In this document: positions 711 to 61,354 of the stretch, piece after piece
Numbering within the stretch: position 1 is the first letter of the stretch
Layout of the letters: each line of letters starts with the position of its first letter
Source: an uncultured Candidatus Rokubacteria bacterium
Lineage (GTDB): Bacteria > Methylomirabilota > Methylomirabilia > Rokubacteriales > DASRDR01
Reading direction: 5' to 3'
DNA length: 64,000 nt
NCBI GenBank assembly: GCA_963708025.1
Contig: CAVPSB010000018.1
Span: 160,001 to 224,000, forward strand
Translations under genes and position numbers: made by a program
The notes under the pieces: generated by a model
Databases searched by the model: none
Told to the model about the DNA's origin: nothing
Seen by the model: only the letters and a program-made list of their open reading frames with translations

Positions 711-832
711 GTCGTCGTTTGGACGGCCTTCGGCCTTTGGGGTCGTCGCCGATCCTCGGCGTACTCGGAGTACGCCTGCGGTCGGGGACTCCCTGCGTCC
801 TAGCGCTGCTCGGGTCTCGGCCCGGCGCCCCG
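711..832. repeat. Palindromic intergenic repeat, scaffold A, copy 1
   Basis: 711-800 matches the reverse complement of 61224-61313 at 86/90 nt by manual alignment; central hairpin GGCGTACT-CGG-AGTACGCC; carries the 20-nt module at 721-740. Confidence 0.9.
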
Positions 833-851
833 TAGTCGACGCGGACGTGCC

Positions 852-1911
852 GTGACCGCGCTGCCGCCTCGCGAGGTGCTCGGGTTTTATCCGACGCCGC
901 TTCACGCGCTGACACGGCTGAGCGAGCATCTCGGCGGCCCGCGGCTCTACATCAAGCGCGATGACCTCACCGGGTTCGCCCTGGGCGGCAACAAGGTGCG
1001 GAAGCTCGAGTTCTTCCTGGGCGAGGCGCGGGCGACCGGCGCCGACGTCCTGGTGACCGCCGGGGGGCACCAGTCGAACCACGCCCGCATCACGGCGGCG
1101 GCCGCCGCCCGGGTGGGCCTCGGCTGCGTGCTGGTCCTCTCCGGGGGTCGCCCGGCGGCCTACGCGGGCAACCTCGCGCTGGACCGCCTCTTCGGCGCCG
1201 AGCTTCGCTTCGTCGGGACCGGGCCCGAGCGGATGCCGGCGGTCCACGCCCTCGCCGCCGAGCTGTCCGCCGCCGGGCGCCGGCCGCTCGTGATCCCGAT
1301 CGGCGGCTCGACCCCGCTCGGCGCCCTCGGCTACGTCGAGGCGGTCCGCGAGGCGGCGGCCCAGCTTCGCGACCTTCGGGGTCACGCCGGCGGCGATCGT
1401 CCACGGCTCCTCGTCGGGCGGAACCCAGGCCGGCCTCGTCGTCGGCTGCCGTGTCTCCAACCTGGACACGCGCGTCATCGGGATCAGCGCCGACGAGACC
1501 CGGGCGGACCTCGGCCGGATGGTCGCGGAAATCGTCGGACCGCTGGCCGAGCGGATCGGGCTGCCGGCACCCTTGCCGGGCGCCATCGAGGTGCTGGACG
1601 AGTACGTCGGCGTGGGGTACGGGATCCCGACCGCCTCCTCCGAGGAGGCCACCGAGCTCTTCGCCCGGCTGGAGGGCATTCCGCTCGACCCGAGCTACGG
1701 CGCGAAGGCCGGAGCCGGGCTGATCGACCTCGTCCGCCGGCGGGTCTTCGGCCCGCGAGACACCGTGTGCTTCTGGCACACCGGCGGCGCCACCTGGCAC
1801 CGGCCGCCGGGGCCCGACCGGCGCGTGAGGCTTCCTTCCACCGCGGGCTGGCGCAGATGGACCGTCAGCGAGTCGGACTCTGCTGGGACTGCCGCTGGGC
1901 GCGGCGCGTGA
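852..1911 (+). CDS. D-cysteine desulfhydrase / ACC deaminase family PLP enzyme (frameshift near 1378)
   Basis: IKRDDLTGFALGGNKVRKLEF and QSNHAR in the 852 frame; SSGGTQAG, LDPSYGAKA and FWHTGG in the 1519 frame. Confidence 0.85.
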
Positions 1912-2030
1912 CGAGCGGGCGAGGATCGGTCTTCTTCCTGTGCCGCCGGGCGGAGACCGAGCCCGCCTATCCGAGGTACCCGCCACTGCCGCGGCTTTCC
2001 TGCGCGGGGTACGAGCCGTCCGATTCCTCC
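1857..2030 (+). CDS. Small Cys-rich hypothetical protein (3' end uncertain)
   Basis: MDRQRVGLCWDCRWARRVTSGRGSVFFLC...YPRYPPLPRLSCAGY has four Cys and normal composition; no nearby stop, so it runs into the convergent gene. Confidence 0.55.
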
Positions 2031-3385
2031 GATCCCGGGGGAGGGAGACGCGGAGGATCAGCGGCGGGGAAGACCACCTTGAGGCAGTCGGCGAGCACGC
2101 TCAGCACGGTGTCGATCTCGGCCTCCTCGATGACGAGCGGCGGCTTGAGCTTGAGGACGTTCGGGAGCGCGGAGGCGGTCGCCAGGATCACGCCCCGCCG
2201 CATGGCCTCCTCCACGATCCGCTTCGCCTCGGCCGGCGCCGGCTCCTTGGTGACGGGATCCCGCACCATCTCGACCCCGATGAAGAGGCCCGGGCCCCGC
2301 ACGTCGCCGATCTGCGGGTACTCCTGCTGCAGGGCGCGCAGGCCGCGGGTGAGGAGCGCGCCCATGCGGGCCGCGCGCTCGGGGATGCGGTCCCGCTCGA
2401 GGATCTCGATGACCTTCAGCGCGACCGCCTGGGCCACCGGGTTCGAGCCGAAGGTGTAGACGTCCTCGCCGGTCGGCTCGAAGCGCTTGAGCCGGTCGTC
2501 GGCGACGACGGCGGCGATGGGGAAGCCGCCCCCCAGCGCCTTGGACAGCACCATCATGTCCGGCGTCACGCCGAGCCCCTCCGCGGCGAACATCCACCCC
2601 GTCCGGCCGAGGCCGGTCTGGATCTCGTCGAAGATCAGCAAGACCCCGAGCTCGTCGCAGATCCGGCGGACCTCCCGGACGAACGTGGCCGGGAACGGGA
2701 TCTGGCCCCCGCTCCCCTGGACCGGCTCCAGCAGCACCGCGGCCACCGGCCCGTCCACGCCGCGCTGGATCGTGTCACGGAGGGGCGCCGCGCACTCGGC
2801 GCCGGCGCACTCGCCCGAGGCCAGGCGGCGCGGGCAGCGGTAGCAGTAGGCGTTGGGGACGCGGACGAAGTTGTGGAGGAACGGCAGGAATTTCACCCCG
2901 GGTCCGAACGCGCCCGAGGTCTGGGTCCCGCTCCAGGAGGCGGCCATCGTCGCCAGCGTGTTGCCGTGGTAGGCGTGGTAGAAGGTCACGAAGCGGGCGG
3001 CCCCGGGCCGGTTGATCAGGGCGAGCTTGAGCGCCGTCTCGATCCCGAGCGAGCCGGTCGGCGCGAAGGTGACGGTGCCCAGCCGGCCCGGGCACAGGTC
3101 GGCCAGCCGCTTGGCCAGGAGCAGCCGGGGCAGGGTCGGGAACCCCGCCCGCGCGTGGGCGAGGATCCGGATCTGCGCCACCGCCGCCTCGATCACCTCG
3201 GGGTGGTTGTAGCCGAGCGCGAGGGTCCAGGCCTGGGCCGTGCAGTCGATGTACGACTTGCCGTCGATGTCGGTGACGCGGCTCCCCTGGCCGGAGACGA
3301 GCACCGGCCCCAGCCAGGCCGAGCCGTACCCGACGTGCTGCTGGAGCGCGGCGATCTCCCCGGGCGTCAGTCGTGGCGTGTCCAT
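1967..3385 (-). CDS. Class III PLP-dependent aminotransferase
   Basis: LGYNHP, EPVQGSGG, IFDEIQTGLGRTG, SKALGGG, GDVRGPGL; RBS GAGGAGG upstream. Confidence 0.92.
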   Translation of the reverse strand: MDTPRLTPGEIAALQQHVGYGSAWLGPVLVSGQGSRVTDIDGKSYIDCTAQAWTLALGYNHPEVIEAAVAQIRILAHARAGFPTLPRLLLAKRLADLCPGRLGTVTFAPTGSLGIETALKLALINRPGAARFVTFYHAYHGNTLATMAASWSGTQTSGAFGPGVKFLPFLHNFVRVPNAYCYRCPRRLASGECAGAECAAPLRDTIQRGVDGPVAAVLLEPVQGSGGQIPFPATFVREVRRICDELGVLLIFDEIQTGLGRTGWMFAAEGLGVTPDMMVLSKALGGGFPIAAVVADDRLKRFEPTGEDVYTFGSNPVAQAVALKVIEILERDRIPERAARMGALLTRGLRALQQEYPQIGDVRGPGLFIGVEMVRDPVTKEPAPAEAKRIVEEAMRRGVILATASALPNVLKLKPPLVIEEAEIDTVLSVLADCLKVVFPAADPPRLPPPGSEESDGSYPAQESRGSGGYLG

Positions 3386-3398
3386 CGAGGCCTCCTCA

Positions 3399-3533
3399 TT
3401 TCGGGACCTCCCGCCCTCCCGATCCTTCGACGGCCTTCGGCCTTTGGCCCCCCTCCCCCACCGCCCGACGGCCTTCGGCCTTTGGCTGGGGGGAGGGGGG
3501 AGTCGGAGGCCCTGATTCCTTCACACCCTCTCA
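3399..3533. repeat. Stop-codon-anchored intergenic element, scaffold B, with two 20-nt modules
   Basis: Ends TTCGGGACCTCCCGCCC and GGGGAGTCGGAGG..GATTCCTTCACAC.CTCTCA are shared with 29696-29787; modules at 3429-3447 and 3467-3485. Confidence 0.9.
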
Positions 3534-4355
3534 GCCCTTCAGGCCGGTGAGCGCGATGCCGCGGATCATGAACTTCTGGGAGACGGCGTAGGCCAGCAGC
3601 ATCGGCCCGGTGGCGATGACGGTGGCGGCCATCAACGGCCCGTAGTTGATGCTGCCGTACGGGTCCTTGAAGAGTGCGATGCCGACCGGCAGCGTCCGGA
3701 GCTCCTGCGAGTTGATGACGATGACCGGCCACAGGAAGTCGTTCCAGGAGCCCAGGAAGAGGATCATCGCCACGGTGGCCAGCGTCGTCTTGATGAGCGG
3801 GGTGATGATGGTGAGCACGATGCGGACCTCGCCGGCCCCGTCGATCCGGGCGGCCTCGATCAGGTCCACCGGGATGGCCTTGATCCCCTGGCGGATCATG
3901 AAGACGCCGAAGGCGCTGGCGAAGTTCGGGGCCAGGATGCCGAGATAGGTGTCCACCCACTCGATCCGGGCCAGGAGCACGTAGAGGGCGACCGAGGTCA
4001 CCTGGACCGGGACCATGAGCGTGCTCAGGATCAGCAGGAAGAGGACGGTCTGGAGCGGGAACCGGTAGACGGCGAAGGCGTAGCCGGCGAAGAGCCCGAA
4101 GGCGAGCGAGCAGCCGACCGAGACCACGGCGACGACCAGGCTGTTCCGGTAGTAGCTGAGCCAGGGCGCCTTGGCGAAGGCCGTCGCGAAGTGCTCGGCG
4201 GTCAGCCGGCTCGGGATCCACTTCGGCGGGAACGCGAGGATGTCCGAGGCCGGGCTGACCGCCGTCACCACCATCCAGTAGAAGGGCAGGATCATCAGGA
4301 CGGCGACCGCCGTCACCACGGTGAACAGCGCGATCCGGCCCGCGGCCCGGGTCAT
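3531..4355 (-). CDS. Carbohydrate ABC transporter permease (MalG/UgpE-like)
   Basis: EAA motif DLIEAARIDGAG, WNDFLWP, QKFMIRGIALTGLKG; ATG at 4355. Confidence 0.92.
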   Translation of the reverse strand: MTRAAGRIALFTVVTAVAVLMILPFYWMVVTAVSPASDILAFPPKWIPSRLTAEHFATAFAKAPWLSYYRNSLVVAVVSVGCSLAFGLFAGYAFAVYRFPLQTVLFLLILSTLMVPVQVTSVALYVLLARIEWVDTYLGILAPNFASAFGVFMIRQGIKAIPVDLIEAARIDGAGEVRIVLTIITPLIKTTLATVAMILFLGSWNDFLWPVIVINSQELRTLPVGIALFKDPYGSINYGPLMAATVIATGPMLLAYAVSQKFMIRGIALTGLKG

Positions 4356-4360
4356 CGAGC

Positions 4361-4445
4361 CCCCCCCCACCCATGGACGGCCTCGGCCTTTGCGACCCCT
4401 CCCCACCACTCGACGGCCTTCGGCCTTTGGCCGGGGGGAGGGGAG
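4361..4445. repeat. Scaffold B core with two modules, between the permease genes
   Basis: CCCCTCCCCACC..GGGGGGAGGGG hairpin with modules at about 4375-4392 (one T missing) and 4412-4430. Confidence 0.8.
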
Positions 4446-4489
4446 ATGCGCGTTGCACGGGCCCTGGGCGATCCGCTTCAGACGCCCCA

Positions 4490-5435
4490 TCAGTAGGCGA
4501 CCTCGAAGCGCTTGCTGTAGACGTACTGCACCACGGTGATGCCCAGGATCAGGGCGAAGAGCACGGTGGCCTCGGCCGCCGCGTAGCCCATGTTGTAGCG
4601 CTCGAAGGCCTGGCGGTAGAGGTCGAGCACGACGACGTTGGTGGCGTTGGCCGGGCCGCCTCCGGTCAGGACGAAGACCTGGTCGAAGACCTGGAAGGCC
4701 AGGATGCCGTTGTAGATGAGGAGGAAGGTGGTCGTGGGCGCCAGGAGGGGCACCGAGATCCGCCAGAACTGGCGGACGGCGCCGGCGCCGTCGATGGTCG
4801 CGGCCTCGTAGAGCTGCTGGGGGATGGACTGGAGGCCGGCCAGGTAGATGATCATGTTGTAGCCGAGGCTCTTCCAGACGCTGAAGATGATGATCGCGGT
4901 GAGGGCCGTCCGGCTCGACATGAGCCAGGGCTGATCGGGCAGCCCGACCAGCCGCAGCAGCACGTTGAAGAGCCCGAACTGCGGGTTGTAGAGCCACCAC
5001 CACACCATGGCGGCGGCCGCCGTGCTGGTGACCATGGGCGCGAAGTAGACGGCCTTGTACAGCTCGCGGAGCCGGAAGCGGGTGTTGAACAGCACCGCCA
5101 GCCCGAGCCCCAGCGCCGGCCGAGATCGGGACGATGGTCGCCACGTAGAGGAGCGTGTTCGTCATGGCCTTGTGGAACGTCGGATCGACGGCCATGTCGC
5201 GGAAGTTGTCGAGCCCGATGAAGGTGAAGCGGCCCCGCACCAGCTCGACCTTGTAGACCGAGTAGAGCAGGGTCTGGACGGCGGGGACGACGCGGAAGAT
5301 GGCGAAGAGGAGGATGACCGGGGCAATGAACGCGTAGGCGTGGAGGACGTGGCGGCTCCGGAGGCGCGCGAGGCGCCGCCGCCAGGAATGGGACTGCCCC
5401 GCGGGAGGGACCCCCCGCGGGGCAGCGCCGGTCAG
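4490..5435 (-). CDS. Carbohydrate ABC transporter permease (MalF/UgpA-like; frameshift near 5120, start uncertain)
   Basis: HAYAFIAPVILLF...FIGLDNF in one frame; LYEAATIDGAG and FQVFDQV in another. Confidence 0.85.
5394..5425. other. GC-rich stem-loop downstream of the substrate-binding protein gene
   Basis: CTGCCCCGCGGG-8nt-CCCGCGGGGCAG, perfect 12-bp stem, at the position where ABC operons often carry mRNA-stabilising hairpins. Confidence 0.55.
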
Positions 5436-5448
5436 CTCCGGAGCGACG

Positions 5449-6741
5449 CTACTTGGCGGCGTCGGCGATCGCCTTGTTGGCCTGCCGGTCGGCTTCCGCG
5501 AGCGCCGCCTCGAGCGGCGCCTCGTGGTGCCAGACCTTCTGGATGGCCCCGCCCATCGCGTCCATCACGCCGTTGAAGCCGAGGTTGATGGGGAGCTTCT
5601 TGCCGTAGGGGTACATGACCTTGAGGGCCTGGTCGTAGGGATCGGACTTGAACGGCTCCTTGTCCCAGTTGACCTTGTAGCGCGGGGACGCGTCGTACTT
5701 CTTGCACAGCTCGTAGTCCTTCTCCGCGCTGTTGAGCCACTCGATCAGCTCCCACGCCAGCGCCTTGTTCTTGGCCGGCTTGGGCACCGCGTAGACCCAG
5801 GCGCCGAGCAGCGAGACGGGGGGGTCGCCGGCCTTCGGCGCGGGCGGGAGCGCCATGCCCCACTTGAGGTCGGGGGCCTCCTTCGGCTGGCGCGCCTTGA
5901 TGCTCACGGTCTCGCTGATCTGCATCGAGGCGATGCCCTTCAGGAACGCCGCCCGCGGGTCCGGGAAGTTCAGGCTGGTGGACTTGTCGACGTCCAGCAT
6001 GTCGAGGACCAGCTTCAGCGCCGCCTTCCCGCCGTCGTTGTTGATGATGGCCTTTCCGCCCCGCAGGAGGAGCGGGTCGTCGACCAGGCGGACGCCGCCG
6101 CTGTAGAGGGCCCAGAAATGCTTGTGCACGATGCCGTGGGGATGGCCGACGTGCCGGATCGCGTAGCCGACCCGCGTGATGTTCCCCTGGGCGTCCCGCT
6201 TGGTGAGCTTCTTGGCGTACTCCCGGAACTCGGCCCACGTCTTGGGCGGCTTCTCGGGATCGAGCCCCACCTCCTTGAAGTGCTCCTTGTTCCAGGTCAG
6301 CCCGTAGACGTCGATGCCGTACTGGGGGTAGCCCCACATCCGGCCGTTGCCGTAGTCCGACAGCTCCTTGATCTCGGGGGAGACCGCATTGAGCCACGCC
6401 CTGGCCTTGGCATCGGCGACCGGCTCCAGCATCTCCTCCTTGAGGAAGCCGGGGATCCAGCCGTTGTCGACGAACAGGATGTCGCCGATGTTCCGGCCGG
6501 CGGCGGCCGCGAAGATCTTCTGCTGCATGGTGTCGTAATCGAGGCCGACCGCCTCGACCTTGACGTTGTGCTTGGCCTCGAACTCGGCGAACAGGCCCTT
6601 GTCCGCGAAGTGGGCGGCGCCAGACGTGATGTCGCCGGCCGGGTACCAGAGGGTGACGGTGGCCTTCGCCTGGGCCGCGGCGAGCGCCGGAGCCAGGACG
6701 AGGACCGCGAGGGTGGTGGCGAGCCAGGTGAGGCGTCTCAT
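5449..6741 (-). CDS. Sugar ABC transporter extracellular solute-binding protein
   Basis: Signal peptide ending AAAQA; WNKEHFKEVGLDPEKPPKTWAEF, family 1 SBP. Confidence 0.9.
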   Translation of the reverse strand: MRRLTWLATTLAVLVLAPALAAAQAKATVTLWYPAGDITSGAAHFADKGLFAEFEAKHNVKVEAVGLDYDTMQQKIFAAAAGRNIGDILFVDNGWIPGFLKEEMLEPVADAKARAWLNAVSPEIKELSDYGNGRMWGYPQYGIDVYGLTWNKEHFKEVGLDPEKPPKTWAEFREYAKKLTKRDAQGNITRVGYAIRHVGHPHGIVHKHFWALYSGGVRLVDDPLLLRGGKAIINNDGGKAALKLVLDMLDVDKSTSLNFPDPRAAFLKGIASMQISETVSIKARQPKEAPDLKWGMALPPAPKAGDPPVSLLGAWVYAVPKPAKNKALAWELIEWLNSAEKDYELCKKYDASPRYKVNWDKEPFKSDPYDQALKVMYPYGKKLPINLGFNGVMDAMGGAIQKVWHHEAPLEAALAEADRQANKAIADAAK

Positions 6742-6844
6742 GGAAGGTTCCCCCTTTCGCGCTCTCGCGCGCTGGGACGGACTCTATGCCCGCGCTTCCG
6801 GCGGTGTCAAGGCCGGGGGCCCTGCGCCGGGGGTCCTCTGCGCG

Positions 6845-7736
6845 CTAGGCGAGGGGCAAAGTGGTGTCGGCGCGGGTCTCCTGGTCGTGGTAGCGGATCA
6901 GGGCCTCGAAGTCGGGACCGATGCGCGTGTCGCCGAAGGCCGCCAGGTAGCGGCACGTCGCGTAGCGGGCCGCGGTCGCGGCGTACTCCGACTCCCAGGC
7001 GCGGAACTGCGCCTCGGCCTGGGGCGTGTCGTAGGGAAAGCTGACCGGGGGCGGGCGGAGGCCGCAGCGCCACGGCTTGGGCGTCAGCCGGGCGCGGAAC
7101 GACTGCTGCATTCGACACAGCCGGACGTAGAGCGGGTCGGCGCCGAACTGCTGGAGCAGGGTCTCGCTCGCTCCGCTGCTGGCGTCGAGGCGAGAGCCGG
7201 TCACGATCGCCCGGTGTCCGGCGGCGGTGCGGTAGACGCGAGCGCCGAGCCCGTTGGCCTCGGCGACGCGCCGGACGTCGGCCAGCACCGGGCTCTCCCC
7301 CGTGGGCGGCGCCGGCGCGGCCTTGCCGAAGAGCGACAGGACGCTGGACACCAGGCCCATCGCGGCGGCCGCCCCGTCCGGCGTGTCGCCCCGGTCGATG
7401 TCGACGAACATCAGCTGGCGGGCGTTCAGGACGAGGGCACCGTACGCGTTCCGCGTGACCACCGCGCCGGCCTCGCCGCCGCCCCCGCCCGGGAACTCGC
7501 GCAGGATCGGCTCCGGCAGTGGCCGGTCGCCGTACGGGTATCGGCCGGTCCCGCCCGGACCCGAGAGCAGCCGCTGGGCCAGCCTGGCGCGCGGTGACGC
7601 GGGCCAGGTCGCGCGCGGCCGCGAGGCTGTCGTTCGACCAGCCCCGGGCGACGACGCGGATCCGCTGGCCGCCCGGTCCGATGGCCTCGCCCGGCTCCCG
7701 CGCCCAGAACCGCGCCAGCTTCACGGCCAGCAGCAT
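6845..7736 (-). CDS. Hypothetical protein (frameshift near 7580), possible AEP/Prim-Pol-like fold
   Basis: VKLARFWARE..RGWSNDS N-terminus joins the frame carrying RYPYGDRPLPEP, MFVDID, YRTAAGHR, ADPLY, FRARLTPKP. Confidence 0.7.
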
Positions 7737-7788
7737 ACGACGAACGCCGCGCTCGCGCACCCGGGCCCGCGGCGGGCGGCAGGCCCGC

Positions 7789-8470: not shown

Positions 8471-8473
8471 GAC

Positions 8474-8916: not shown

Positions 8917-9013
8917 GCCCTCATTCTACGTGGCTGCCGGCGGTCCTTGTCGGCGCCGGGCTACCGTCCGGCGCTTCCTTGACGTCGGAGGTAGAGCGTC
9001 CTACGCTTGACGC

Positions 9014-24340: not shown

Positions 24341-24490
24341 TTCGGGATCTCCCGCCTACCCCCCAACCCCCCTCCCGTCCGACGGGATCGTCGGGACGGC
24401 TTGGGCCTGCGGCCCTCGCGACGTCGACGGCCTTCGGTCGGCACGGGGGGGAGGGGGGGCCGGACGATTCCGTTCCTTCTCATGCCATCA
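24340..24490. repeat. Scaffold B, diverged copy
   Basis: TTCGGGATCTCCCGCC left end, GGGGGGGAGGGGGG, TTCCTTCTCATGCCATCA right end; degenerate modules at 24403-24415 and 24426-24440. Confidence 0.75.
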
Positions 24491-29698: not shown

Positions 29699-31344
29699 GA
29701 GCGTGTGAAGGAATCGGGTCCTCCGACTCCCCCCTCCCCCCGGTGGGTGGGGGAGGGGGGCTGGGGGGGTGGGCGGGAGGTCCCGAACAGATACGCCGAA
29801 CGCTCCGCCAGCTCGCGCTGGCGTCGGGCGCCGGCGTCCTCTGCTTCCTCGGGTACGTCGGCTTCGGCATCGTTCCCCTGATCTTCGTCTGCCTGGTCCC
29901 GCTCTTCTTCGCGGTCGCCGACGCGACGCCGGGCCGGGCCTTCGGGCTCGGAGCCGTCTTCGGGCTGGTCGGGAACCTGGGCGCCCTGTACTGGATCGTC
30001 CATCTCCTCACGGTGTTCGCGGACCTGAGCCTCCCGCTGGCCCTGCTCGCCTGCGGGCTCCTCTGCCTCTACTGCGGGCTCGTCTTCGGCATCGCGATGT
30101 GGATCGTGCGGCGGCTCGCGCTCGACGGGGGCGTCGCCCCGGCCTTCGGGCTCGCGCTGGCGTTGCCGGCCATCGAGCTCGCGTATCCGCTCATCTTCCC
30201 CTACTTCCTCGGGAACGCCCTGTACTCGATCCCCGTGCTCACCCAGGTCGTGGAGGTGACGGGTGTCCCCGGGCTCACGGCGCTCGTCGCCGTCGTGAAC
30301 GGCGCCTGCTACGAGCTGGCCGAGGCCGGCCTCTGGCGCCGTCGGGTCGCCCGGGGCCCGGTGGCGGTGGCCCTGGCGGCGGTCGTCGCCTGCGCGGGCT
30401 TCGGGCTCGCGCGCATCCCGGCCGTCGACCGTGTCGCGGAGGGGGCGAGGAAGATCCGGGTGGCCGTCGTGCAGACGAACATCGGCGCCCGCGAGAAGGC
30501 CGACCGGGCCGTCGAGTTCGTCCGGCGGCATCAGCTCATGTCGAGGGAGGCCGAGGCCGAGCACGGGCCCTTCGACCTCATCGTCTGGCCGGAGTCGGCG
30601 TTCAACGCCCTCGTGCCGCGCGCCGTCCGGAACGTCCGGGCCCTCACCGAGGGGATCCAGGCCCCCGTCGTCCTCGGCACCCTGGTGACCGATCGCGGGC
30701 CCGGCGGCGAGCAGCGCGTGTACAACAGCGTCCTGCTCACGTCGGCCACCGGCGGCGTGCTCGGGATCTTCGACAAGGTCGAGCTGCTCGTGTTCGGCGA
30801 GACGCTGCCCTTCGTCGACACCTTCCCGTCGATCAAGGACTGGTTCCCGCGCAGCTCGACGTTCGACCGCGGGACCACATTCCGGCACCTGCGCATGGAG
30901 GACGGCACCGCCCTGCTGCCGATGATCTGCTACGAGGACATCATCCCCGCCTTCGTCCGCCGCATGTGGAGGGCGGACGGCCCCGCCGACGTGCTGGTCA
31001 ACGTGACCAACGACTCGTGGTACGGCGACACGCGGGAGCCGCGGATCCACCTCGCGCTCGCGTCGTTCCGGAGCATCGAGACCCGCCGGGCGATGATCCG
31101 CTCGACCAACACCGGGATCAGCGCCATCGTCGATCCGGTGGGGCGCATCGTGAAGCGGACCGGGCAGTGGACGCGGGAGACCCTGGTCGCGGAGGTGCCG
31201 GTCATCCGGGACGGCTCCAGCAGCCCGTACATGACCCTCGGGGACGCGTACGGCTGGCTGTCGGGTCTCGCCGCGCTCGGGCTCCTGGCCCGGGGCCGCG
31301 CGCGCCGCCGGGCCCTACCGTCTCCCCACCGGCCGAGCGAGTAG
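29695..31344 (+). CDS. lnt: Apolipoprotein N-acyltransferase
   Basis: QTNI, VWPES, FDKVELLVFGE, ICYE, NDSWYG, RSTNTGISA. Confidence 0.93.
   Translation: MRACEGIGSSDSPLPPVGGGGGLGGWAGGPEQIRRTLRQLALASGAGVLCFLGYVGFGIVPLIFVCLVPLFFAVADATPGRAFGLGAVFGLVGNLGALYWIVHLLTVFADLSLPLALLACGLLCLYCGLVFGIAMWIVRRLALDGGVAPAFGLALALPAIELAYPLIFPYFLGNALYSIPVLTQVVEVTGVPGLTALVAVVNGACYELAEAGLWRRRVARGPVAVALAAVVACAGFGLARIPAVDRVAEGARKIRVAVVQTNIGAREKADRAVEFVRRHQLMSREAEAEHGPFDLIVWPESAFNALVPRAVRNVRALTEGIQAPVVLGTLVTDRGPGGEQRVYNSVLLTSATGGVLGIFDKVELLVFGETLPFVDTFPSIKDWFPRSSTFDRGTTFRHLRMEDGTALLPMICYEDIIPAFVRRMWRADGPADVLVNVTNDSWYGDTREPRIHLALASFRSIETRRAMIRSTNTGISAIVDPVGRIVKRTGQWTRETLVAEVPVIRDGSSSPYMTLGDAYGWLSGLAALGLLARGRARRRALPSPHRPSE
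29696..29787. repeat. Scaffold B, module-free copy at the lgt/lnt junction
   Basis: Reverse complement aligns to 3400-3533 apart from the two module-containing insertions. Confidence 0.9.
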
Positions 31345-48913: not shown

Positions 48914-48983
48914 GTGCCTCTCAGCTTCCGTGGGTTTCTCGCAACCCCCCTGGTCCGGCCGCGCGGCCGTGGCGTTCCACTTC

Positions 48984-49067
48984 GAGCCGCGGCCCAAAGG
49001 CCGAAGGCCGTCCAACAGTCGCGGCCTCCGAGGGGGGGCTTCGGGGGGTCTTCCAAGACCCCCCCGA
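48984..49067. repeat. Palindromic intergenic element, scaffold C, with the module in its loop
   Basis: GCCGCGGC-[CCAAAGGCCGAAGGCCGTCC at 48994-49013]-AACA-GTCGCGGC, then CGGGGGGTCTT-CC-AAGACCCCCCCG. Confidence 0.8.
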
Positions 49068-49072
49068 TGTTC

Positions 49073-53082: not shown

Positions 53083-53145
53083 CGTCTTCGCGGGGTCATC
53101 CGACCGGGGCGAACCCCGCGGTCCGCTCGCCCCGGGCCGAGCCGA

Positions 53146-55120: not shown

Positions 55121-56055
55121 CGCCCCTCCCCGGGTCGATGGAATCCGGGCGGGCGAAGCTGGATCGCCTGCTCCGCAACGAAGCCGACATGACGGCGAAG
55201 CATCGGGTCCGGGTGGTGCTGGAGTACCTGGACGTCCAGCCGGGCGATCGAGTGCTCGACTGCGGCTGCGGCTACGGATGGTTCCTGAAGGTGCTCGGCG
55301 AGATGTCCGCGTGCCGGCTCGTGGGGACGGACGTCGATCTGAACCGCCTGGGAAAGGCGCGGCGGGAGCTCGCCGCCGGAGCGGGCCCAGGGAGCGCGGC
55401 GGTGCTCGCTGCCGACGCCGCGCGCCTGCCCTTTCAGGACGACACCTTCGACAAGATCGTGCTGTCGGAGGTGCTCGAGCACCTGCCGGGCGATCGGGCC
55501 GCGCTGCTCGAGGTCCGGCGGGTGCTGAAGCCGGGCGGGGTGGTCGCGATCACGGTGCCCAATCGCGACTATCCGATGCTGTGGGACCCGGTGAACTGGC
55601 TGCGCGAGCGTCTGGGCCTGGCCCCCATCCGTCGTGGACTCTTCGGCGGGATCTGGACGGACCACCTGAGACTCTATCGTCGGGACGAGATCGTGCGTCT
55701 CGTGCGAGAGGCCCGCTTCGCCGTCGAGGACGTGCGGGGACTGGTGCACTACTGCGTCCCGTTCAGTCACAACCTCGTCTACGGGCTGGGCAAGCCGCTG
55801 GTCGAGCGCGGGCTGCTGGCCCGCGCCGATCGATTCCGCTACGCGGAGAACCGCGGGTCCATGTGGGACCCCCTGAACCTGGGGCGGTGGGTGTTCAACG
55901 CGATCGACCGGCTCAACGGCCCGGCGTCGGGCACGGCCGGGACGACGGTGGTCATCGGCCTGAAAGCGCGGAAGCCGGGCGGTCCACCCGGTGTCGAGAG
56001 TGCGGCGGTGACCGACCCGGGCGCGGTGGTCGCACGCACCGGACCGCCCGGCTGA
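55117..56055 (+). CDS. Class I SAM-dependent methyltransferase
   Basis: VLDCGCGYG, LPFQDDTFD, EVLEHL, LKPGG. Confidence 0.9.
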   Translation: MTPLPGSMESGRAKLDRLLRNEADMTAKHRVRVVLEYLDVQPGDRVLDCGCGYGWFLKVLGEMSACRLVGTDVDLNRLGKARRELAAGAGPGSAAVLAADAARLPFQDDTFDKIVLSEVLEHLPGDRAALLEVRRVLKPGGVVAITVPNRDYPMLWDPVNWLRERLGLAPIRRGLFGGIWTDHLRLYRRDEIVRLVREARFAVEDVRGLVHYCVPFSHNLVYGLGKPLVERGLLARADRFRYAENRGSMWDPLNLGRWVFNAIDRLNGPASGTAGTTVVIGLKARKPGGPPGVESAAVTDPGAVVARTGPPG

Positions 56056-56080
56056 TGGATGCCCTCGGTGGGGTCTCGCC

Positions 56081-56887
56081 ATGTCGCCGGCGCGGCTGAG
56101 GTACTACGTCGCCTCGATCCCGACGTTGCTGCGCGGGGTGAAGAACCGGGCGGCGACCGCCGCCGCCCTGCTCCGGGCGCGTCGCGGCGAGCCCTTCGTG
56201 GTCGAGTTGCGCGATGGGTGCCGCTTCAAAGTGGTGACCGCGCTGGATCTGTGGATCCTCAAGGAGGTGTGCCTCGACCGGGAATATGAGCGATACGGCG
56301 CGACGATCCGAAACGGCTGGACCGTCGTTGACGTCGGCGCGGGCCTCGGCGAGTTCTGCATCCAGGTCGCCCGCGAGCACCCCGACTGCCGCGTCTATGC
56401 GTTCGAGCCGGGGTCCGAGTCGTTCGCGCTGTTACGGGAGAACGTCGGCCTCAACGCCGTTCGAAACGTCAGCCTCTTCCCCTGGGCCGTCGGCGGGCGT
56501 GCCGGCGTGTCCGTCCTGCGTCTGGCGGCGGGCACACGGGCCCGGGCCAGCATCGCGACGGCGGCGGGAACCCCCGGACAGCCGTGGGCTGACGTGCCGA
56601 CGACGACGCTGGGCGAGATCTTCCGTGACCTGGACATTCCGCGGTGCGACTTCCTGAAGGTGGACTGCGAGGGCGCCGAGTACGACATCCTCATGGGCGC
56701 GGACGCCGGCACGCTGGACCGGATCGCGCACATGAGCATCGAGTACCACGATGGCGTCACGGCCTTCTCCGGCGTCGATCTGGCCCGATTCCTGGAGAGC
56801 CGGGGATTCCGGGTCCGTCAGGTCCGGAATCCCGCGTATCCCGCGAAGCTCGGGTGGCTGTCCGCAGCCCACCCCCGCCACGCCTGA
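56081..56887 (+). CDS. FkbM family methyltransferase
   Basis: VDVGAGLG, YAFEP, LKVDCEGAE, IEYH. Confidence 0.92.
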   Translation: MSPARLRYYVASIPTLLRGVKNRAATAAALLRARRGEPFVVELRDGCRFKVVTALDLWILKEVCLDREYERYGATIRNGWTVVDVGAGLGEFCIQVAREHPDCRVYAFEPGSESFALLRENVGLNAVRNVSLFPWAVGGRAGVSVLRLAAGTRARASIATAAGTPGQPWADVPTTTLGEIFRDLDIPRCDFLKVDCEGAEYDILMGADAGTLDRIAHMSIEYHDGVTAFSGVDLARFLESRGFRVRQVRNPAYPAKLGWLSAAHPRHA

Positions 56888-57030
56888 GCTTCTCAGCCCC
56901 AGAAGCTGCCGGGCAGGGCACCGGGTGCCCCGAAAGAACCACCAGACGACCGGTGTGATGGCCGCCAGGATCGGGAGCGGCACGAGCGCCTCGAGTAGCT
57001 CGGGACCTCCCGCCCACTTCCCCATGGCCC

Positions 57031-59559
57031 TCAGCGCTCGACCGGGCTCTCCTCCCCGAAGACGAGATCCTCCAGCCACTCGATCTGGATCCGATCGGGA
57101 CCCCGCAGGCTCCCGCCGTAGGCGCCGTTAACGGCGCGCCGGGTGGCCCACAGGACCACCTGCTTGCCCTGCTGCTGGAGCGTCCGGATCGCCTCGTGGA
57201 AGTCGCCGTCGCCGGTCCCGATCACGAAGACGGAGATCTCGGGGTGCTCCCGCAAGACCAGGTGGATCTTCTCCAGCAGCACGTGATCGGACGAGTTGGA
57301 CTTCGCCCCGCCGGCGATGTCCGAGAAGTACCCGGCGTTCTTCACGGCCTTCTGGTCACCCTCGAAGGTGGGCCGGTCCCAGTCCGCCACCGCCCAACGC
57401 TGGCGGGGGAGACCGTGGCGCCAAGCCGCGTCGCGGAGCCGGGTGGCCAGTTCGGCACCGGCGAGCCGGGACCGCAACGCCTGGGCCCGCCCGTCGGGCA
57501 TCTCGGCGATCAGGTCGGCCAGGCTGATCTTGATGTTCTCCCAGTCGAGCATGAGGGCGAGCGGCGGCCGCTCCGGACTGGCGCCGGACCGCTCGCGCCG
57601 GCGCTCGAGCGGGGGCGCCACGGCGGCCCGCCCGGCGTCGCGGGCCGGCGGGCTCTCGGGCTCTTCGCTCTCGCCGGGGGCGTCGGGCTCGGCGGGAGCC
57701 CGGCCGCTGGGGCCCAGCCGCTCCTCCCACATCCGGGCATCGGCGTCCGCCATGCCGGTGTCCCGCCAGCTCTGCTTCAGGATGCGGAGGCCGTCCTCCT
57801 GGAAGCCGTGGCGGAGACCCCAGCCGAGCAGGCCCCGCAGCACCTGGGTCTTCTTGCGGGGATCGACGTTCTTCTTGTGCTGCGTTGACCGCCAGCTCTG
57901 CTGGCGGCACCGCCAGGCCGCCGTCAGGTCGCCGGCCGTCTCGTTGAGGACCGCCGCGCATTCCCAGTTCTTGAAGACCCGGCCTTCGCTCCCGTAGGAC
58001 GCGCGCTGGCGGAACCACTCGACGCCGGCGGCGATGAGCGAGTGCTCGATGAAGTCGCGCGTGAGCTGGTCCAGCTCGTCGAACGCGAGCCGCTCCTTCG
58101 GATCCGGGAACACGCGGTCGGGGTCGCGCAGGATCCGGTTGATGCGACGGAAGTGGTCGCGGAAGGCCGCCGGCCCGCCGGGCCCGCCACCCTCCCGGAG
58201 CGCCTCCGCGTCCTGGAGCGCGGCCAGCAGGTGGGCCTCGTAGTAGCGGGCCTTGAGGAACAGCGTCGCCAGGACGTCGCGCCGGTTCTGCTCGAGCGCC
58301 CACAGGAGGCACAGCTCGAACACCTCGGAGGTGTGGGCGTCGTGTTCCAGCGCCGGCACCAGGACGTCGAGGGCTTCGGGAGCCCGGGACGGGAGGCGTC
58401 GCAGGGCGCACGCCAGGTTCCACCGCGCCGTCCAGCCCCGGTCCGGCCGGAAGTTCTCGGAGGCGATGGCCTCCTCCAGGAGCTCGATGATGTCGTGGAT
58501 GTCGGTGGTCCGGCCGAAGAGGGTCAGCGCGTACGCGTACCACTCCTTGGCGATGGTGTTGTGGCTCTTGCGGTAGTGGATGTCGTTGAACAGGTCGAGG
58601 GCGCGCGGATCCTGGCGGAGGATCAGGCCGCGCGCCTCGACGAAGGCCGGATCGGGGGCGCCGCTGACCCGCAGCTCGGACACCGGCTCCCGGTACTCGG
58701 CCTTCGCGTCCAGGCGAAGCCTGAGGTTCATCTCCAGCTCGTCGGCGATCTCCTCCAGGGCCTGACCCAGGGCCTGGGCGTCGCCGCGCTCGACCGCCTG
58801 GCGGATCGCCGACCAGACCGCGGGGGGAATTAGCGCCGAGAGGTCCTCCGGGCGACGGAGGGCGCGCTGCGCCTTGCGGGCGGCGGCCGGCGCCACTTCC
58901 TGGCCGATCTCCTCCCACTGCCGGCGGATCTTCTCGAGCCGGGTCGGGATCTCCATCGCCAGGACCGGCTCGATGTTTTCCCGGACGATCCGCTCGTGGA
59001 AGGCGGCATCGCCCTCGCCGGCCGCCCGGATCCGCTCCAGCTCGGACAGGAGCAGCTCGTTGACGCCGAGGAGGAGCTGGGGAGGGACGATGCCCCAGGC
59101 GGAGCGCACGAAGGTCAGGACGGCCTCCTGGATCGCGCCGGCGTCGGTCTCCCCGGCCTGGCAGCGACCGACCTCGTGGAGCACGAGCACCTTGAGCGCG
59201 TTCGAAAGGGTCTGCCGCATCGGCTGGGTTGCCCGGAGCAGGGGGTTGCCGCCCCGGAACATCTCGTGGGCAGCCTGGAAGAGCCGGAGGCCCTCGGCGA
59301 CCTCGCCGGTCCCGGCCGTCCGCCGGCCGAGCACGTCGAGCGCGAAGCCGAGGGTGACCAGCTCCCGGCTCCGGGAGCCGTCCCTGACCTGGGACGCCGT
59401 CGAGGGCGCCTCCCTCAGGGACAGGACGGCGGCGCGGTTCTTCTCGCGATGCTCCTCGGGAAAGTCGTCGAGGCGCGACTCGATGGTCGCGACCAGGTCA
59501 GGCAGTGCATCGACGATCTGCTCGGCCGACCAAAGATGCCACTCGAGAGGTTGACCCAT
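57031..59559 (-). CDS. 842-aa protein: helical (TPR-like) N-terminus and C-terminal NYN (PIN-like) domain
   Basis: LMLDWENI, KSNSSDH, IGTGDGDF..LQQQGKQV in the C-terminal ~180 aa; Pro/Glu-rich linker. Confidence 0.75.
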   Translation of the reverse strand: MGQPLEWHLWSAEQIVDALPDLVATIESRLDDFPEEHREKNRAAVLSLREAPSTASQVRDGSRSRELVTLGFALDVLGRRTAGTGEVAEGLRLFQAAHEMFRGGNPLLRATQPMRQTLSNALKVLVLHEVGRCQAGETDAGAIQEAVLTFVRSAWGIVPPQLLLGVNELLLSELERIRAAGEGDAAFHERIVRENIEPVLAMEIPTRLEKIRRQWEEIGQEVAPAAARKAQRALRRPEDLSALIPPAVWSAIRQAVERGDAQALGQALEEIADELEMNLRLRLDAKAEYREPVSELRVSGAPDPAFVEARGLILRQDPRALDLFNDIHYRKSHNTIAKEWYAYALTLFGRTTDIHDIIELLEEAIASENFRPDRGWTARWNLACALRRLPSRAPEALDVLVPALEHDAHTSEVFELCLLWALEQNRRDVLATLFLKARYYEAHLLAALQDAEALREGGGPGGPAAFRDHFRRINRILRDPDRVFPDPKERLAFDELDQLTRDFIEHSLIAAGVEWFRQRASYGSEGRVFKNWECAAVLNETAGDLTAAWRCRQQSWRSTQHKKNVDPRKKTQVLRGLLGWGLRHGFQEDGLRILKQSWRDTGMADADARMWEERLGPSGRAPAEPDAPGESEEPESPPARDAGRAAVAPPLERRRERSGASPERPPLALMLDWENIKISLADLIAEMPDGRAQALRSRLAGAELATRLRDAAWRHGLPRQRWAVADWDRPTFEGDQKAVKNAGYFSDIAGGAKSNSSDHVLLEKIHLVLREHPEISVFVIGTGDGDFHEAIRTLQQQGKQVVLWATRRAVNGAYGGSLRGPDRIQIEWLEDLVFGEESPVER

Positions 59560-59748
59560 GGGACCTCGCTCCTACGTGCACGTGGCTCCCCGCCGGGGAG
59601 TGACAGCATTGGTCCGGTGACCGGGTGATCAAGGGGTGACGCCGCTCAAAGAGGCCCGGGTCGTGTCGTCGGGCTGACACCGGCTGCCCGCTGACTTCCC
59701 TGCGCGCTCGGCAGAAGCCCGGGGTCGGAGCGGGACCAACACTCCGAG

Positions 59749-60171
59749 CTACCGGCGACGCCGCGGCGCGGTCTTGCGGCTGGCCTGTCCCGCGTGCGGC
59801 CGCCGGGCGGGCTTCCGGGGGACGTGGCGGCTCGGAGCCGGCTTCCGGGGCGCGGGCTGGGGCTGCCGGACCGGAGCGTGGACAGGGATGGGTGCCGTCC
59901 GCTCCTTCATCGGCGGGGACTTGCGTGCTTTCGGGTCAACGGCCGGCTGGACGATAATGGACGGGGTGGCGTCGAGGAAGTGACGCACCGCGAACCCGCA
60001 GACCCGGCACCGCTTGTAGATGAACCGGCGGCCGTGCTCGTCGACCCGGGTCCGGCCCAGCACCTCCATCCGGACCGCACAGCACTTGTTGGGGGCCGGC
60101 GGCGAGATGATCCTTTTAGGATAAAGATTCTGAGCTTTTACATGACGTGTATAAACGATGATGCTCTTCAT
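59749..60171 (-). CDS. Small Zn-ribbon protein with a basic Pro/Arg tail
   Basis: KCC..M....YKRCRVCGF followed by a low-complexity basic C-terminus. Confidence 0.6.
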   Translation of the reverse strand: MKSIIVYTRHVKAQNLYPKRIISPPAPNKCCAVRMEVLGRTRVDEHGRRFIYKRCRVCGFAVRHFLDATPSIIVQPAVDPKARKSPPMKERTAPIPVHAPVRQPQPAPRKPAPSRHVPRKPARRPHAGQASRKTAPRRRR

Positions 60172-60230
60172 GGTCCCAGCCGTGCTCGGGGGCATTTTCC
60201 CCGAATCGGCCGTAGTTTGCAAGTAGAATC

Positions 60231-61112
60231 TTACGTGGGACGTTCGGAGGCCGGGCGGCCGCGGCTGACGAGGGCGCGGGCGCTCGGGAAGAGGCGGAAG
60301 AGGGTTTCGTGGGGTGTCGTTTCCAGGAACGGCTCGACGAGCCGCTTCGTGTAGGCCGGGCTCCCCGCGAAGCGCACCTCGCCGGACGCGATCAGCGTGC
60401 CGTCGCCGGTCAGGAGGAGACCCTGAGCGCGAAGGTACCGGCCGCGCCGATCATCGTCCGGCCGAACGCCGGCCCGGTCGCCGATGACGAGGAGGGGCGC
60501 GAAGGGGAGCGGTCGCACGACCGTGACGGTGACCTCGGTGGTGACACCGCACTCCTGCTGCGCCAGCGCGCCGAGCCACCAGCCGAGCTCGTCGAGGGCG
60601 ATCGTGACCAGGGCGGGGTGCAGCGAGCCGTCGGCGGCGCGATAGGTGTCGCGGGGCGTGTACTCGCGCCAGAGAAACCGGTCATCGAAGGCGAACCGGA
60701 TCCCGAGGCCCAGGGCGTTGTCGGTGCCACAGGCCAGGCAGGTTGCGGTCGCCGGGACTTCAGCCAGCGGTTGCCTGCCCCGCCAGGCGTCGAGGATCGG
60801 CCGGGGGTCGATGGCAAGGACTGGCCCGCGCGCCAGCTCCGCCGCCGCCAGCCGGCGGTCTCCCTGGGCGAGCGCGAGCTGGGCCACGCTGCCGGCGCTC
60901 CCCGTCGTCAGCTGGAGCGGCGTCTCGGTGGGGACGCCGCGGAGCAGCTCCATGCGGAGCCGGACCGGCGGGCTCGGTGTGGTCACGCGGTAGAAGAGCC
61001 CAGCCACGGCACCCCCGTGGACCGTGCCGGGAAAGCCGTGGAAGTCGCGCGCGAACGTGACCTCGCCGAGCCCGGCGCCGGCGAGGGCCTCACGCAGCGC
61101 CGCTTCGATCAT
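60231..61112 (-). CDS. Double hotdog-fold (PaaI/thioesterase-like) protein
   Basis: FHGFPGTVHGG and a second unit CLACGTDNALGL..LHP..LDE. Confidence 0.75.
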   Translation of the reverse strand: MIEAALREALAGAGLGEVTFARDFHGFPGTVHGGAVAGLFYRVTTPSPPVRLRMELLRGVPTETPLQLTTGSAGSVAQLALAQGDRRLAAAELARGPVLAIDPRPILDAWRGRQPLAEVPATATCLACGTDNALGLGIRFAFDDRFLWREYTPRDTYRAADGSLHPALVTIALDELGWWLGALAQQECGVTTEVTVTVVRPLPFAPLLVIGDRAGVRPDDDRRGRYLRAQGLLLTGDGTLIASGEVRFAGSPAYTKRLVEPFLETTPHETLFRLFPSARALVSRGRPASERPT

Positions 61113-61171
61113 CGGGGGGCCGGCGCCACTAGAGTCTTTGCGCCAGAGCGGCGACAGATGAGTCAAGATCT

Positions 61172-61354
61172 CGGGGGCGGGGCCGAGGAGCGAGCAGCGC
61201 CCACAGGCCGAAGGCCGTCCAATGGACGCAGGGAGTCGCCGACCGGAGGCGTACTCCGAGTACGCCGAGGATCGGCGACGACCCCAACGGCCGAAGGCCG
61301 TCCGAACGACGACCGTAGGTCGGGACGGACGCGAGGCCGTAGGCCGAGCGCGTC
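61172..61354. repeat. Scaffold A, copy 2 (inverted), with two modules and extra GNA mini-hairpins
   Basis: 61224-61313 is the inverse of 711-800; modules at 61201-61220 and 61284-61303; GACC-GTA-GGTC at 61311-61321; GGCC-GTA-GGCC at 61335-61345. Confidence 0.9.

Follow-up and report, generated by a model that had tools for sequence, protein, structure and literature searches.

The 64-kb window analysed here, i.e. the whole stretch of DNA given above (contig CAVPSB010000018.1, positions 160,001 to 224,000; G+C 72%), belongs to an assembly of an uncultured Candidatus Rokubacteria bacterium, G000, which comprises 8.17 Mb in 49 contigs with a G+C content of 71%. The assembly is rated 99.67% complete and 8.18% contaminated, so that some minority of its contigs may stem from another organism. 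The subject of the analysis is a short hairpin-forming motif that recurs within long palindromic intergenic elements, here called scaffolds (A to E), where it occupies fixed positions, here called slots (A1, A2 and so on), that exist in a filled and an empty state. The motif forms the conserved core of a cassette of 21 nt, composed of one variable base and GGACGGCCTTCGGCCTKTGG, with a 4-bp GGCC stem and a TTC triloop (GAA on the other strand). Its 14-mer GACGGCCTNCGGCC is found with at most one mismatch at 8 sites of the window, i.e. 722, 3429, 3467, 4412, 24426 (1 mismatch), 48999(-), 61206(-) and 61289(-), against a mean of 1.16 in 100 dinucleotide shuffles, none of which reached 8; likewise, GGCCGNAGGCC is found 10 times, with 1.32 expected. 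A first-pass annotation, made from the letters of the window, had listed nine copies of the motif, and its positions were borne out by these 8 sites at no more than one mismatch; two copies proved degenerate, the one near 4375, whose loop lacks one base, and the one at 24426. The scaffolds and modules of the window are the following:

681..835, plus strand: scaffold A copy, 3' of a plus-strand gene for an ABC ATPase (gene end at 680); slot A1 filled, slot A2 empty.
721..740, plus strand: module with the exact consensus GGACGGCCTTCGGCCTTTGG, in slot A1.
800..804, plus strand: empty allele of slot A2 (CTAGC); the filled allele found elsewhere is 21 nt longer.
3396..3529, minus strand: scaffold B copy, flanked by two minus-strand genes; a long C-rich/G-rich imperfect palindrome.
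3428..3447, plus strand: module in slot B1.
3466..3485, plus strand: module in slot B2, located at the tip of the long hairpin.
4351..4485, minus strand: scaffold E copy with two modules.
4375..4393, plus strand: degenerate module with the loop one base short (GGACGGCC-TC-GGCC).
4411..4430, plus strand: module of the CGAC variant, in slot E2.
24341..24487, minus strand: B-type scaffold with a nested cassette G at its apex and its own GGCC-TGC-GGCC hairpin at 24404-24414.
24425-24444: degenerate module GACGGCCTTCGGTC, inside the B-type scaffold with cassette G.
29699..29790, plus strand: scaffold B copy in which neither slot is filled, located between lgt and the following plus-strand gene.
48930..49072, minus strand: scaffold C copy, with a module at 48994-49013 (-) between the arms GGCCGCG and GCCGCGGC.
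61167..61395, minus strand: D-A composite, with modules at 61201-61220 (-, slot A2) and 61284-61303 (-, slot D2).
61335-61345: own GGCC-GTA-GGCC hairpin of the empty slot D1 in the D-A composite.

Two pairs of sites in the window show the cassette as present or absent in otherwise corresponding scaffolds. In scaffold A, the empty site TGCGTCC-TA-GCGCTGCTCG at 794-813 corresponds to the filled site TGCGTCC-ATT, motif and GCGCTGCTCG on the minus strand at about 61190-61235, while the scaffold B copy at 29699-29790 has no module and that at 3396-3529 has two, one of them at the apex of the C-rich/G-rich stem. Both pairs had been pointed out by the first-pass annotation and were confirmed on reading the sites.

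A genome-wide Hamming scan with the 20-mer GGACGGCCTTCGGCCTTTGG revealed 128 exact copies, 419 with up to 1 mismatch, 577 with up to 2 and 631 with up to 3, as compared to 0, 0, 0 and 4 in the reversed genome, which supplies the genome-wide count that the first-pass annotation had called for. The two strands are used nearly equally (348 vs 334 among 682 matches with up to 4 mismatches), and GGCC-TTC-GGCC together with its complement is found 634 times, several-fold over every other A/T-containing triplet in this frame. Flanks were clustered for 630 of the 631 copies, the remaining one lying at a contig edge, and 618 of them fall into recurrent contexts that correspond to about a dozen fixed slots in transcribed, palindromic intergenic elements; the other 12 have two rare flanks, about half of these being matches with 3 mismatches in unique, non-repeat sequence. 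The scaffolds belong to at least five families (A, B, C, D and E), in addition to the cassette G nested in the apex of B. Thus several scaffolds do hold one discrete unit, as the first-pass annotation had maintained; its count of three was too low, and its description of the scaffolds as unrelated does not apply to all of them, since A and D share their right half and B, E and G are kin. The scaffold representatives from the window have 42-126 genomic copies at 60% or more of their length (BLAST; 67 for scaffold A), and the composite elements are 90-230 nt long. Adjacent modules within 150 nt of each other have the same orientation in 193 of 194 pairs, with preferred spacings of 38-39, 83 and 20-21 nt. 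The first-pass annotation rightly stated that both orientations of the module exist; the orientation is, however, fixed within each scaffold.

The structure of the slots was analysed by means of scaffold anchors placed on both sides of seven of them, with the between-anchor lengths tabulated over the genome:

Slot A2: lengths 5/26/47 nt, counts 72/75/5, 166 anchor hits.
Slot D1: lengths 8/29/50 nt, counts 55/39/1, 108 anchor hits.
Slot D2: lengths 2/23 nt, counts 41/19, 67 anchor hits.
Slot B1: lengths 8/29/50 nt, counts 140/47/3, 316 anchor hits.
Slot A1: lengths 2/23 nt, counts 44/35, 240 anchor hits (weak anchors, broad background).
Slot C: lengths 5/26 nt, counts 62/43, 1051 anchor hits (background about 9 per length).
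Slot B2: lengths 6-7/27-28 nt, counts 267/151, 1191 anchor hits.

In all seven slots the length classes are separated by exactly 21 nt, and a slot contains 0, 1, 2 or 3 cassettes. The empty alleles are homogeneous (CTAGC in 59 of 72 cases for A2, TC for A1 and D2, CCCACC for B2), and the filled alleles consist of the 20-mer and a short 5' linker. The empty allele of slot C is GCGAA, itself a C-GAA-G loop, and the empty slot D1 reads CGGCCT-RCG-GCCTC, i.e. a mini-hairpin of the scaffold's own. The GCA (24404) and GTA (61311, 61335) triplets, which the first-pass annotation regarded as variants of the module, are such mini-hairpins of the scaffolds, comparable to the empty D1. In silico excision of 21 nt from each of the 631 copies yielded a sequence that matches an empty site elsewhere for 159 of them (at most 2 mismatches over 44 nt), including 28 perfect cases. 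Perfect empty sites were identified in B2 (CCCA^[T+module]^CCGG, 14 and 8 sites for two copies) and in A2 (CCTA^[21 nt]^GCGC, 4 sites), and for one copy in A1, the remaining perfect cases being tandem duplicates; the perfect empty/filled junctions exhibit no flanking microhomology. The flank clustering and the alignment of empty against filled sites, both proposed in the first-pass annotation, therefore agree with its suggestion of precise empty/filled pairs in more than one scaffold family.

Two further features indicate how cassettes are gained and lost at these sites. G000 has 19 direct tandem modules, some of which have private variants in common, and this points to local duplication. Furthermore, the left flank of one slot is found joined via a module to the right flank of another (A1-left with A2-right in 7 cases, D1-left with A2-right in 5, B1-left with B2-right in 6), as expected from deletions between two direct modules.

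For the analysis of the module itself, a set defined by the slots, hence with no bias from the module sequence, was collected from the 302 inserts of filled length, of which 270 were retained and 32 excluded as not being modules (more than 8 mismatches to the consensus). Positions 2-16, 19 and 20 are at least 97% identical in this set and the variation is confined to positions 1, 17 and 18. The stem is GGCC/GGCC in 255 modules, 14 have a single mispairing and one pairs via a G-T wobble; compensatory double changes of the stem were not found in any of the 270. The loop is TTC in 250 modules, the variants comprising 12 changes of the middle base, 5 of the first and 3 of the third. The constraint on the loop claimed by the first-pass annotation is thus evident and the loop does not vary freely, and this conservation leaves little variation on which its GNA rule could be tested. 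None of the three refuting conditions that it had named (a single scaffold family, freely varying loop bases, a lack of precise empty/filled pairs) applies. The stem is flanked by GAC and TKTGG; on the GAA strand CGTC adjoins it. Such a near-invariant 15-nt core suggests that the sequence as well as the hairpin is recognised or selected, be it in single-stranded DNA or in RNA. Module variants are distributed by slot: A1, B1 and C have TTTGG, A2 and D1 have TGTGG or TGGGG, and CGAC is the variant of B1. This distribution implies that most copies travelled with their own scaffold. The 4-nt 5' linker is hypervariable within the slots A2 and B2 (minor-allele share 0.3-0.6), and the 3' junction is fixed. 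In the slots B1 and B2 (e.g. 3436-3449 in the window) the 3' end of the module and the next CC form an overlapping second palindrome, GGCC-TTT-GGCC, and the 135 genomic sites of this sequence are explained in this way.

The GAA strand reads GGCC-GAA-GGCC, i.e. a C-GNA-G triloop with G-C closing pairs, as is typical of mini-hairpin DNA. The nearest-neighbour DNA model yields only -3.0 kcal/mol for the TTC strand (z -0.97) and -3.4 kcal/mol for the GAA strand (z -1.56), and the assumption of an unusual stability therefore rests on the literature: as reported in PMC13037366, GCGNAGC hairpins melt at 76.5 C owing to a sheared G-A pair, a stability that conventional models miss.

The state of a slot proved to be nearly independent of its surroundings. 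Paired slots within one element exhibit all four combinations of states, with 24 (both empty), 8, 8 and 19 (both filled once) elements for A1/A2, in addition to 3 in which A1 is filled and A2 contains two cassettes in tandem; the corresponding numbers are 42, 9, 11 and 25 for B1/B2, in addition to 2 with two copies in B1 and B2 filled, and 25, 6, 13 and 6 for D1/D2. Scaffold subfamilies defined by compensatory variants of the central hairpin are likewise mixed with respect to A2 (41 empty vs 49 filled in one, 14 vs 14 in the other). The r2 values between slot state and flanking variable sites have medians of 0-0.09 and maxima of 0.01-0.31, whereas variable sites on the same side of a slot reach 0.7-0.9; pairs of variable sites across a slot are equally unlinked (medians 0-0.04). 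Since linkage decays across slots in general, short-patch ectopic conversion and recurrent insertion fit these data equally well. In A1 and D2, the base adjacent to the slot changes with the slot state (r2 0.72 and 0.85), so that in most copies of these slots the alleles differ by more than a pure insertion.

Close strains were compared using contigs from four soil-metagenome runs, which are about 98% identical to positions 1-6000 of the window and are short, seldom spanning repeats. Scaffold E is absent in all four runs: a contig joint 4350->4486 omits exactly 135 nt together with the two modules, with aligned sides of up to 209-212 nt and 0 letters shared at the junction. Scaffold B (134 nt) is absent in two runs (X5 and X20), where the joint 3395->3530 has sides of only 29-30 nt. 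In all 8 family genomes that have both genes flanking the scaffold E locus on one contig, the gap between them is 17-61 nt, as compared to about 140 nt in the window. The composite elements are thus units that differ between close strains, and the contigs that skip the entire scaffold E identify the composite element as a unit of gain or loss. Three further joints with short sides (736->805, 742->805 and 3448->3488) were discarded, as they most likely represent copies from other loci. Among orthologous loci in metagenome contigs, the best relatives have 85-91% protein identity, 2 of the 80 contain a module, and all are too distant for a comparison of slots.

G000 contains 390 exact matches to the 19-mer pattern, which is found 6-62 times in 14 of the 15 genomes of the sister genus, here called g5, once in one other genome and otherwise in none of 251 genomes of the phylum, with 0 hits of the backward control throughout. 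The cassette is confined to two sister genera of one Rokubacteria-type family. The named records with the motif, among the matches listed, are nearly all assembled genomes of 'Candidatus Rokubacteria / Methylomirabilota'. In g5 the module resides in a different, simpler intercistronic scaffold; a second slot of this genus, ACCCT^GGCTCC, is now and then filled by exactly T+GGACGGCCTTCGGCCTGTGG, i.e. by a pure insertion of 21 nt.

The orientation of the scaffolds follows that of the flanking genes. Coding strands were assigned according to GC content by codon position, a rule that was compared with the window by eye and tested against two genes confirmed by Pfam (LGT, plus; permease, minus). On this basis the gene upstream of an A2 site has the orientation of the site in 66 of 72 empty and 67 of 75 filled cases, and B1 sites are flanked on both sides by genes of the opposite strand (101 of 140 empty sites, 38 of 47 filled sites). 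The settings are co-directional or convergent, and divergent ones are rare (for A2, 1 of 72 empty and 3 of 75 filled). From this polarity it follows that transcripts of A, C and D contain the module as GGCC-UUC-GGCC, and those of B and E contain it as GGCC-GAA-GGCC. The elements insert with no target duplication and preserve the stop codon, the ribosome-binding site and the start codon of the adjoining genes. Scaffold B, in the transcribed sense, begins directly after the stop codon, ends a few bases ahead of the start codon and folds as a long imperfect palindrome, at whose base a CCUCC stretch pairs with GGGAGG. Scaffold E is inserted within the second codon of the permease gene downstream, for which it supplies an in-frame ATG: in the empty site the upstream stop overlaps the downstream start (TGATG), and the element end ...GATGAC provides a new ATG in the same frame. 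Scaffold B lies between the stop codon and the ribosome-binding site, and its CCUCC/GGGAGG pairing may hide or couple the downstream start. Near the end of the scaffold B copy at 29699-29790 (29790-29830 in the window), the reading frame of the gene 3' of lgt lacks an ATG, GTG or TTG. The 3' end of scaffold A, in the window (61113-61166, minus strand) and genome-wide, often enters ...GAGAACTTGAC(T/C)CATCTG, a stretch with a TTGAC box that resembles a promoter -35 element and faces the downstream gene.

The search for a mobilising enzyme covered several families. TnpB-type proteins (PF07282) are absent from G000. The IS110 family (PF01548) was rejected: all of its 7 copies lie 2.9 kb or more from the nearest module, and no ends are shared. 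The commonest protein-coding repeat of G000 is a multi-copy element of 1.56-1.64 kb that encodes DUF222 and an HNH endonuclease, found e.g. at locus L191 (G000:C19:85300-87150) and about 15 further places; as a mobiliser it was rejected as well, since it is present in G000 (16 copies) and in four genera devoid of the motif (2-9 copies) but in none of the 15 genomes of the module-bearing g5. The scaffold termini have nothing in common with the IS110 and DUF222-HNH loci. In the 61 intervals between paired modules no recurrent nuclease or transposase gene was found, the sole recurrent family being ABC ATPase paralogs.

The reading that we favour, with about an even chance of being correct, is that the cassette is a building block of mosaic elements akin to repetitive extragenic palindromic (REP) sequences and bacterial interspersed mosaic elements (BIMEs), spread for the most part by travelling with its host elements, as well as by conversion, slippage and recombination. 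In this scenario each slot would first have received a few founding insertions; amplification of the scaffolds, together with ectopic short-patch gene conversion or template switching, would then have spread and shuffled the empty and the filled alleles among the scaffold copies (50-130 per scaffold), slippage would have added further tandem cassettes, and recombination between two direct cassettes would have removed the DNA between them. Several observations weigh against it. At least 7 slots gained the same net 21 nt, and the perfect pairs lack microhomology that could drive slippage. The core is at least 97% conserved at 17 of 20 positions, as compared to minor-allele shares of up to 0.3-0.6 in the linker, and is identical in two genera, which passive hitch-hiking would not obviously produce; a polar enzymatic process may have left the hypervariable 5' linker next to an exact 3' junction as its scar. 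For gene conversion among dispersed 100-nt repeats the decay of linkage is the only indication, the strand calls depend on a crude rule checked on one window and two genes, and no 21-nt indel is listed at any slot within positions 1-6000 of the window for the four soil runs, whose contigs seldom span repeats.

The main rival explanation is one that we regard as tentative and on the whole unlikely. According to it, the 21-nt cassette is a mobile micro-element: a putative enzyme other than a Y1 transposase would recognise single-stranded DNA with the C-GAA-G mini-hairpin between GAC and TKTGG, and would precisely copy or cut the cassette at the loops and junctions of other repeats. It would explain the net gain of exactly 21 nt at 7 slots of G000 and at one further slot in another scaffold of g5, the perfect empty sites, devoid of microhomology, that result from removal of 21 nt at three slots, the independence of slot state from scaffold subfamily, the combination of an exact 3' junction and a hypervariable 5' linker, the identity of the core in two genera, and the conservation of bases outside the stem (G2, A3, C4, T16, G19 and G20, each at least 97%), which points to sequence-specific recognition; moreover, CCGAAGG mini-hairpins are elsewhere known as protein-recognised signals in single-stranded DNA, as described for ssiA of RSF1010 and the RepB' primase (PMC13037366). 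Yet at most 12 of 630 copies lie outside the known slots, so that spread into new DNA is not seen, the variants of the module are slot-specific, no candidate gene emerged among the Y1, TnpB-type, IS110, DUF222-HNH or inter-module genes, and recurrent insertion is not required, given that ordinary flanking sites lose linkage equally fast. In its boldest form, which we consider doubtful, the cassette would be smaller than any other self-contained mobile DNA unit so far seen in bacteria, with a putative host or element-encoded enzyme lacking a Y1/RAYT domain that recognises a single C-GAA-G mini-hairpin on single-stranded DNA and inserts or removes it precisely, with no target duplication, at loops and junctions of palindromic repeats.

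A more specific enzyme, of the HUH type and related to REP-associated tyrosine transposases (RAYTs), had been put forward in the first-pass annotation, together with the expectation of a RAYT/IS200-type gene flanked by the motif. According to this explanation, a REP-like unit is or was moved by a RAYT/IS200-type HUH tyrosine transposase encoded elsewhere or since lost; we find it very improbable, and for G000 it is already largely refuted. The unit does resemble a REP in being high-copy, extragenic and hairpin-forming, the CGTC tag of its GAA strand adjoins the stem, and within the family Y1_Tnp genes are found only in a motif-bearing genus, g5 (9 of 15 genomes, no other genus). However, a search for the Y1 domain (PF01797), with positive controls, found none in the 99.67%-complete G000, where a tblastn search with a 313-aa Y1 protein of the sister genus reached an E-value of 0.096 at best; exact copies are far more numerous in G000 (390) than elsewhere (6-62), with no sign of decay. 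Eight Y1 loci of g5 have 0 copies of the motif within 3.3-4.5 kb, and Y1 genes are present in 21 of 91 genomes of the order, including 16 of the 77 that lack the motif. The modules, moreover, form direct pairs (193 of 194) and not the inverted doublets typical of REPINs (REP doublets that form hairpins), and have a 4-bp stem, as compared to 5-13 bp in described REPs, with no GTAG. A RAYT as the mover of the module is thus not supported. The 313-aa protein, encoded at L073:1961-2902, is a single-copy IS200-like Y1_Tnp with a long C-terminal extension, and its gene is not flanked by modules.

The last explanation dispenses with movement of the cassette altogether and takes it for an immobile functional RNA or DNA motif, e.g. 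a protector of mRNA ends, a nucleator of folding or a protein site, that is kept by selection, in which case the filled and the empty elements would be old sub-families that were amplified separately. The strong conservation of the core, the polarity of the scaffolds with respect to transcription between co-directional or convergent genes and the slot-specific variants would all be in keeping with it. We nevertheless judge it improbable, because slot state is unlinked to the variants that define the subfamilies (about 50:50 in each) and all four combinations of paired slots exist, the UUC reading in A, C and D as opposed to GAA in B and E speaks against a single strand-specific role as RNA, compensatory changes of the stem are missing in the 270 modules, and no Rfam family matches the window at the gathering score.

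Comparison with known systems places the cassette near the REP-type repeats, yet outside their definition. With the REP/REPIN-RAYT systems of Pseudomonas, E. coli and Stenotrophomonas it shares the nature of a short, GC-rich, extragenic hairpin repeat in hundreds of copies, located mostly 3' of genes or between co-directional genes, and the conserved unpaired bases beside the stem. It differs from them in the 3-nt loop on a 4-bp stem (5-13 bp in REPs; PMC3733652), in the lack of GTAG, in the direct arrangement of its pairs, in the absence of a RAYT from G000 and in the location of nearly all modules at fixed slots inside larger repeats. The BIMEs of enterobacteria are likewise intercistronic, transcribed mosaics of a small palindromic unit and other conserved motifs (PMC3184786, Delihas 2011, which summarises the functions of REPs and BIMEs and the intercistronic repeats of mycobacteria); their REPs, however, alternate in orientation, whereas the modules are direct in 193 of 194 pairs and represent an optional 21-nt cassette inside long palindromes. 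The mycobacterial interspersed repetitive units (MIRUs) resemble the scaffolds as oriented intercistronic repeats of operons, with ends that overlap stop and start codons and a variable number of tandem copies (PMC3184786), but their sequences are unrelated, and the scaffolds are long palindromes with an optional mini-hairpin cassette. As regards miniature inverted-repeat transposable elements (MITEs), which are also non-coding, have terminal inverted repeats and measure 70-300 bp, the scaffolds of 134-135 nt are similar in being absent from contigs of close strains, and dissimilar in the lack of a target-site duplication (0 letters shared at the joint 4350->4486) and of a transposase with matching ends.

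On one strand, the neisserial repeat dRS3 carries a 5' CGTC tag and a 3' CCA tail. The module likewise has CGTC beside the stem and CCA at the far end, in reversed order on the strand (CCA...CGTC), and forms direct repeats, whereas dRS3 and the other CGTC-tagged REPs are usually head-to-head dimers. The stems of CGTC REPs comprise 8-9 bp and start with AT, with loops of 4-5 nt, as compared to the all-GC 4-bp stem and 3-nt loop of the module (PMC3733652). Both GTAG and CGTC REPs are described by Di Nocera 2013 (PMC3733652), according to which GTAG repeats are often associated with RAYT genes and CGTC REPs, including dRS3, have no dedicated transposase. The neisserial dRS3 and mosaic elements offer a parallel in this respect, as a unit of about 20 nt distributed among several unrelated repeat families with no dedicated transposase known (PMC3733652).

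There is also a precedent for REPs that reside inside palindromic targets which are found empty as well, e.g. GTAG-23 of T. roseum, whose target CCGSSCC(n3,4)GGSSCGG exists in hundreds of empty copies, and REP dimers lie inside long palindromes in A. variabilis and H. neapolitanus (PMC3733652). As in our case, a small hairpin repeat is located centrally in a palindromic repeat that also exists unoccupied, but the nested REPs are tagged with GTAG or CGTC, while the module fills about a dozen slots in at least five scaffolds, both in loops and at the flanks of stems, in a genome with no RAYT. The C-GAA-G triloop closed by GC pairs is shared with d(GCGNAGC) and with the ssiA priming signal of RSF1010, which carries a CCGAAGG mini-hairpin also contained in the GAA strand of the module (PMC13037366); these are single functional sites at origins of replication or transcription, as opposed to a dispersed cassette with about 630 copies. 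In summary of these likenesses, the module behaves like REP-type units and fails the definition of the family by its 4-bp stem, its direct-only arrangement, the lack of GTAG and the reversed tag and tail, to which the lack of a RAYT is added. In the literature on Rokubacteria and Methylomirabilota in combination with repeats, supplements excluded, these repeats were not found described, though a description may exist.

Few non-coding features of bacterial genomes are as abundant as REP-type repeats, and according to Di Nocera 2013 (PMC3733652) their multiplication is settled only where a RAYT exists, the mechanism for the orphan classes being an open question. G000 represents an unusually clean case, with a fixed 21-nt unit, hundreds of matched empty and filled sites, several scaffolds and no RAYT, and close strains from public soil metagenomes combined with long reads would make the choice between an enzyme and recombination directly testable for orphan REPs. 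If the cassette is itself mobile, hundreds of intercistronic hairpins could be re-tuned by it in one genome. The ability of the scaffolds to rebuild the stop codon, the ribosome-binding site and the start codon within operons could account for the tolerance of more than 500 such insertions by an 8-Mb genome from an uncultured phylum.

A further peculiarity, with no counterpart among the modules of G000 (0 nested arrays of this type), was observed in loci from the sister genus and other Rokubacteria metagenome-assembled genomes (L009, L036, L046, L054 and L168), where arrays of half-modules surround one intact module. The left halves (..TGATCGGACGG..) are located at the left and the right halves, CGGCCTGTGG with a period of 10, at the right, in roughly equal numbers, an arrangement that could reflect either nested insertion into the loop or independent slippage.

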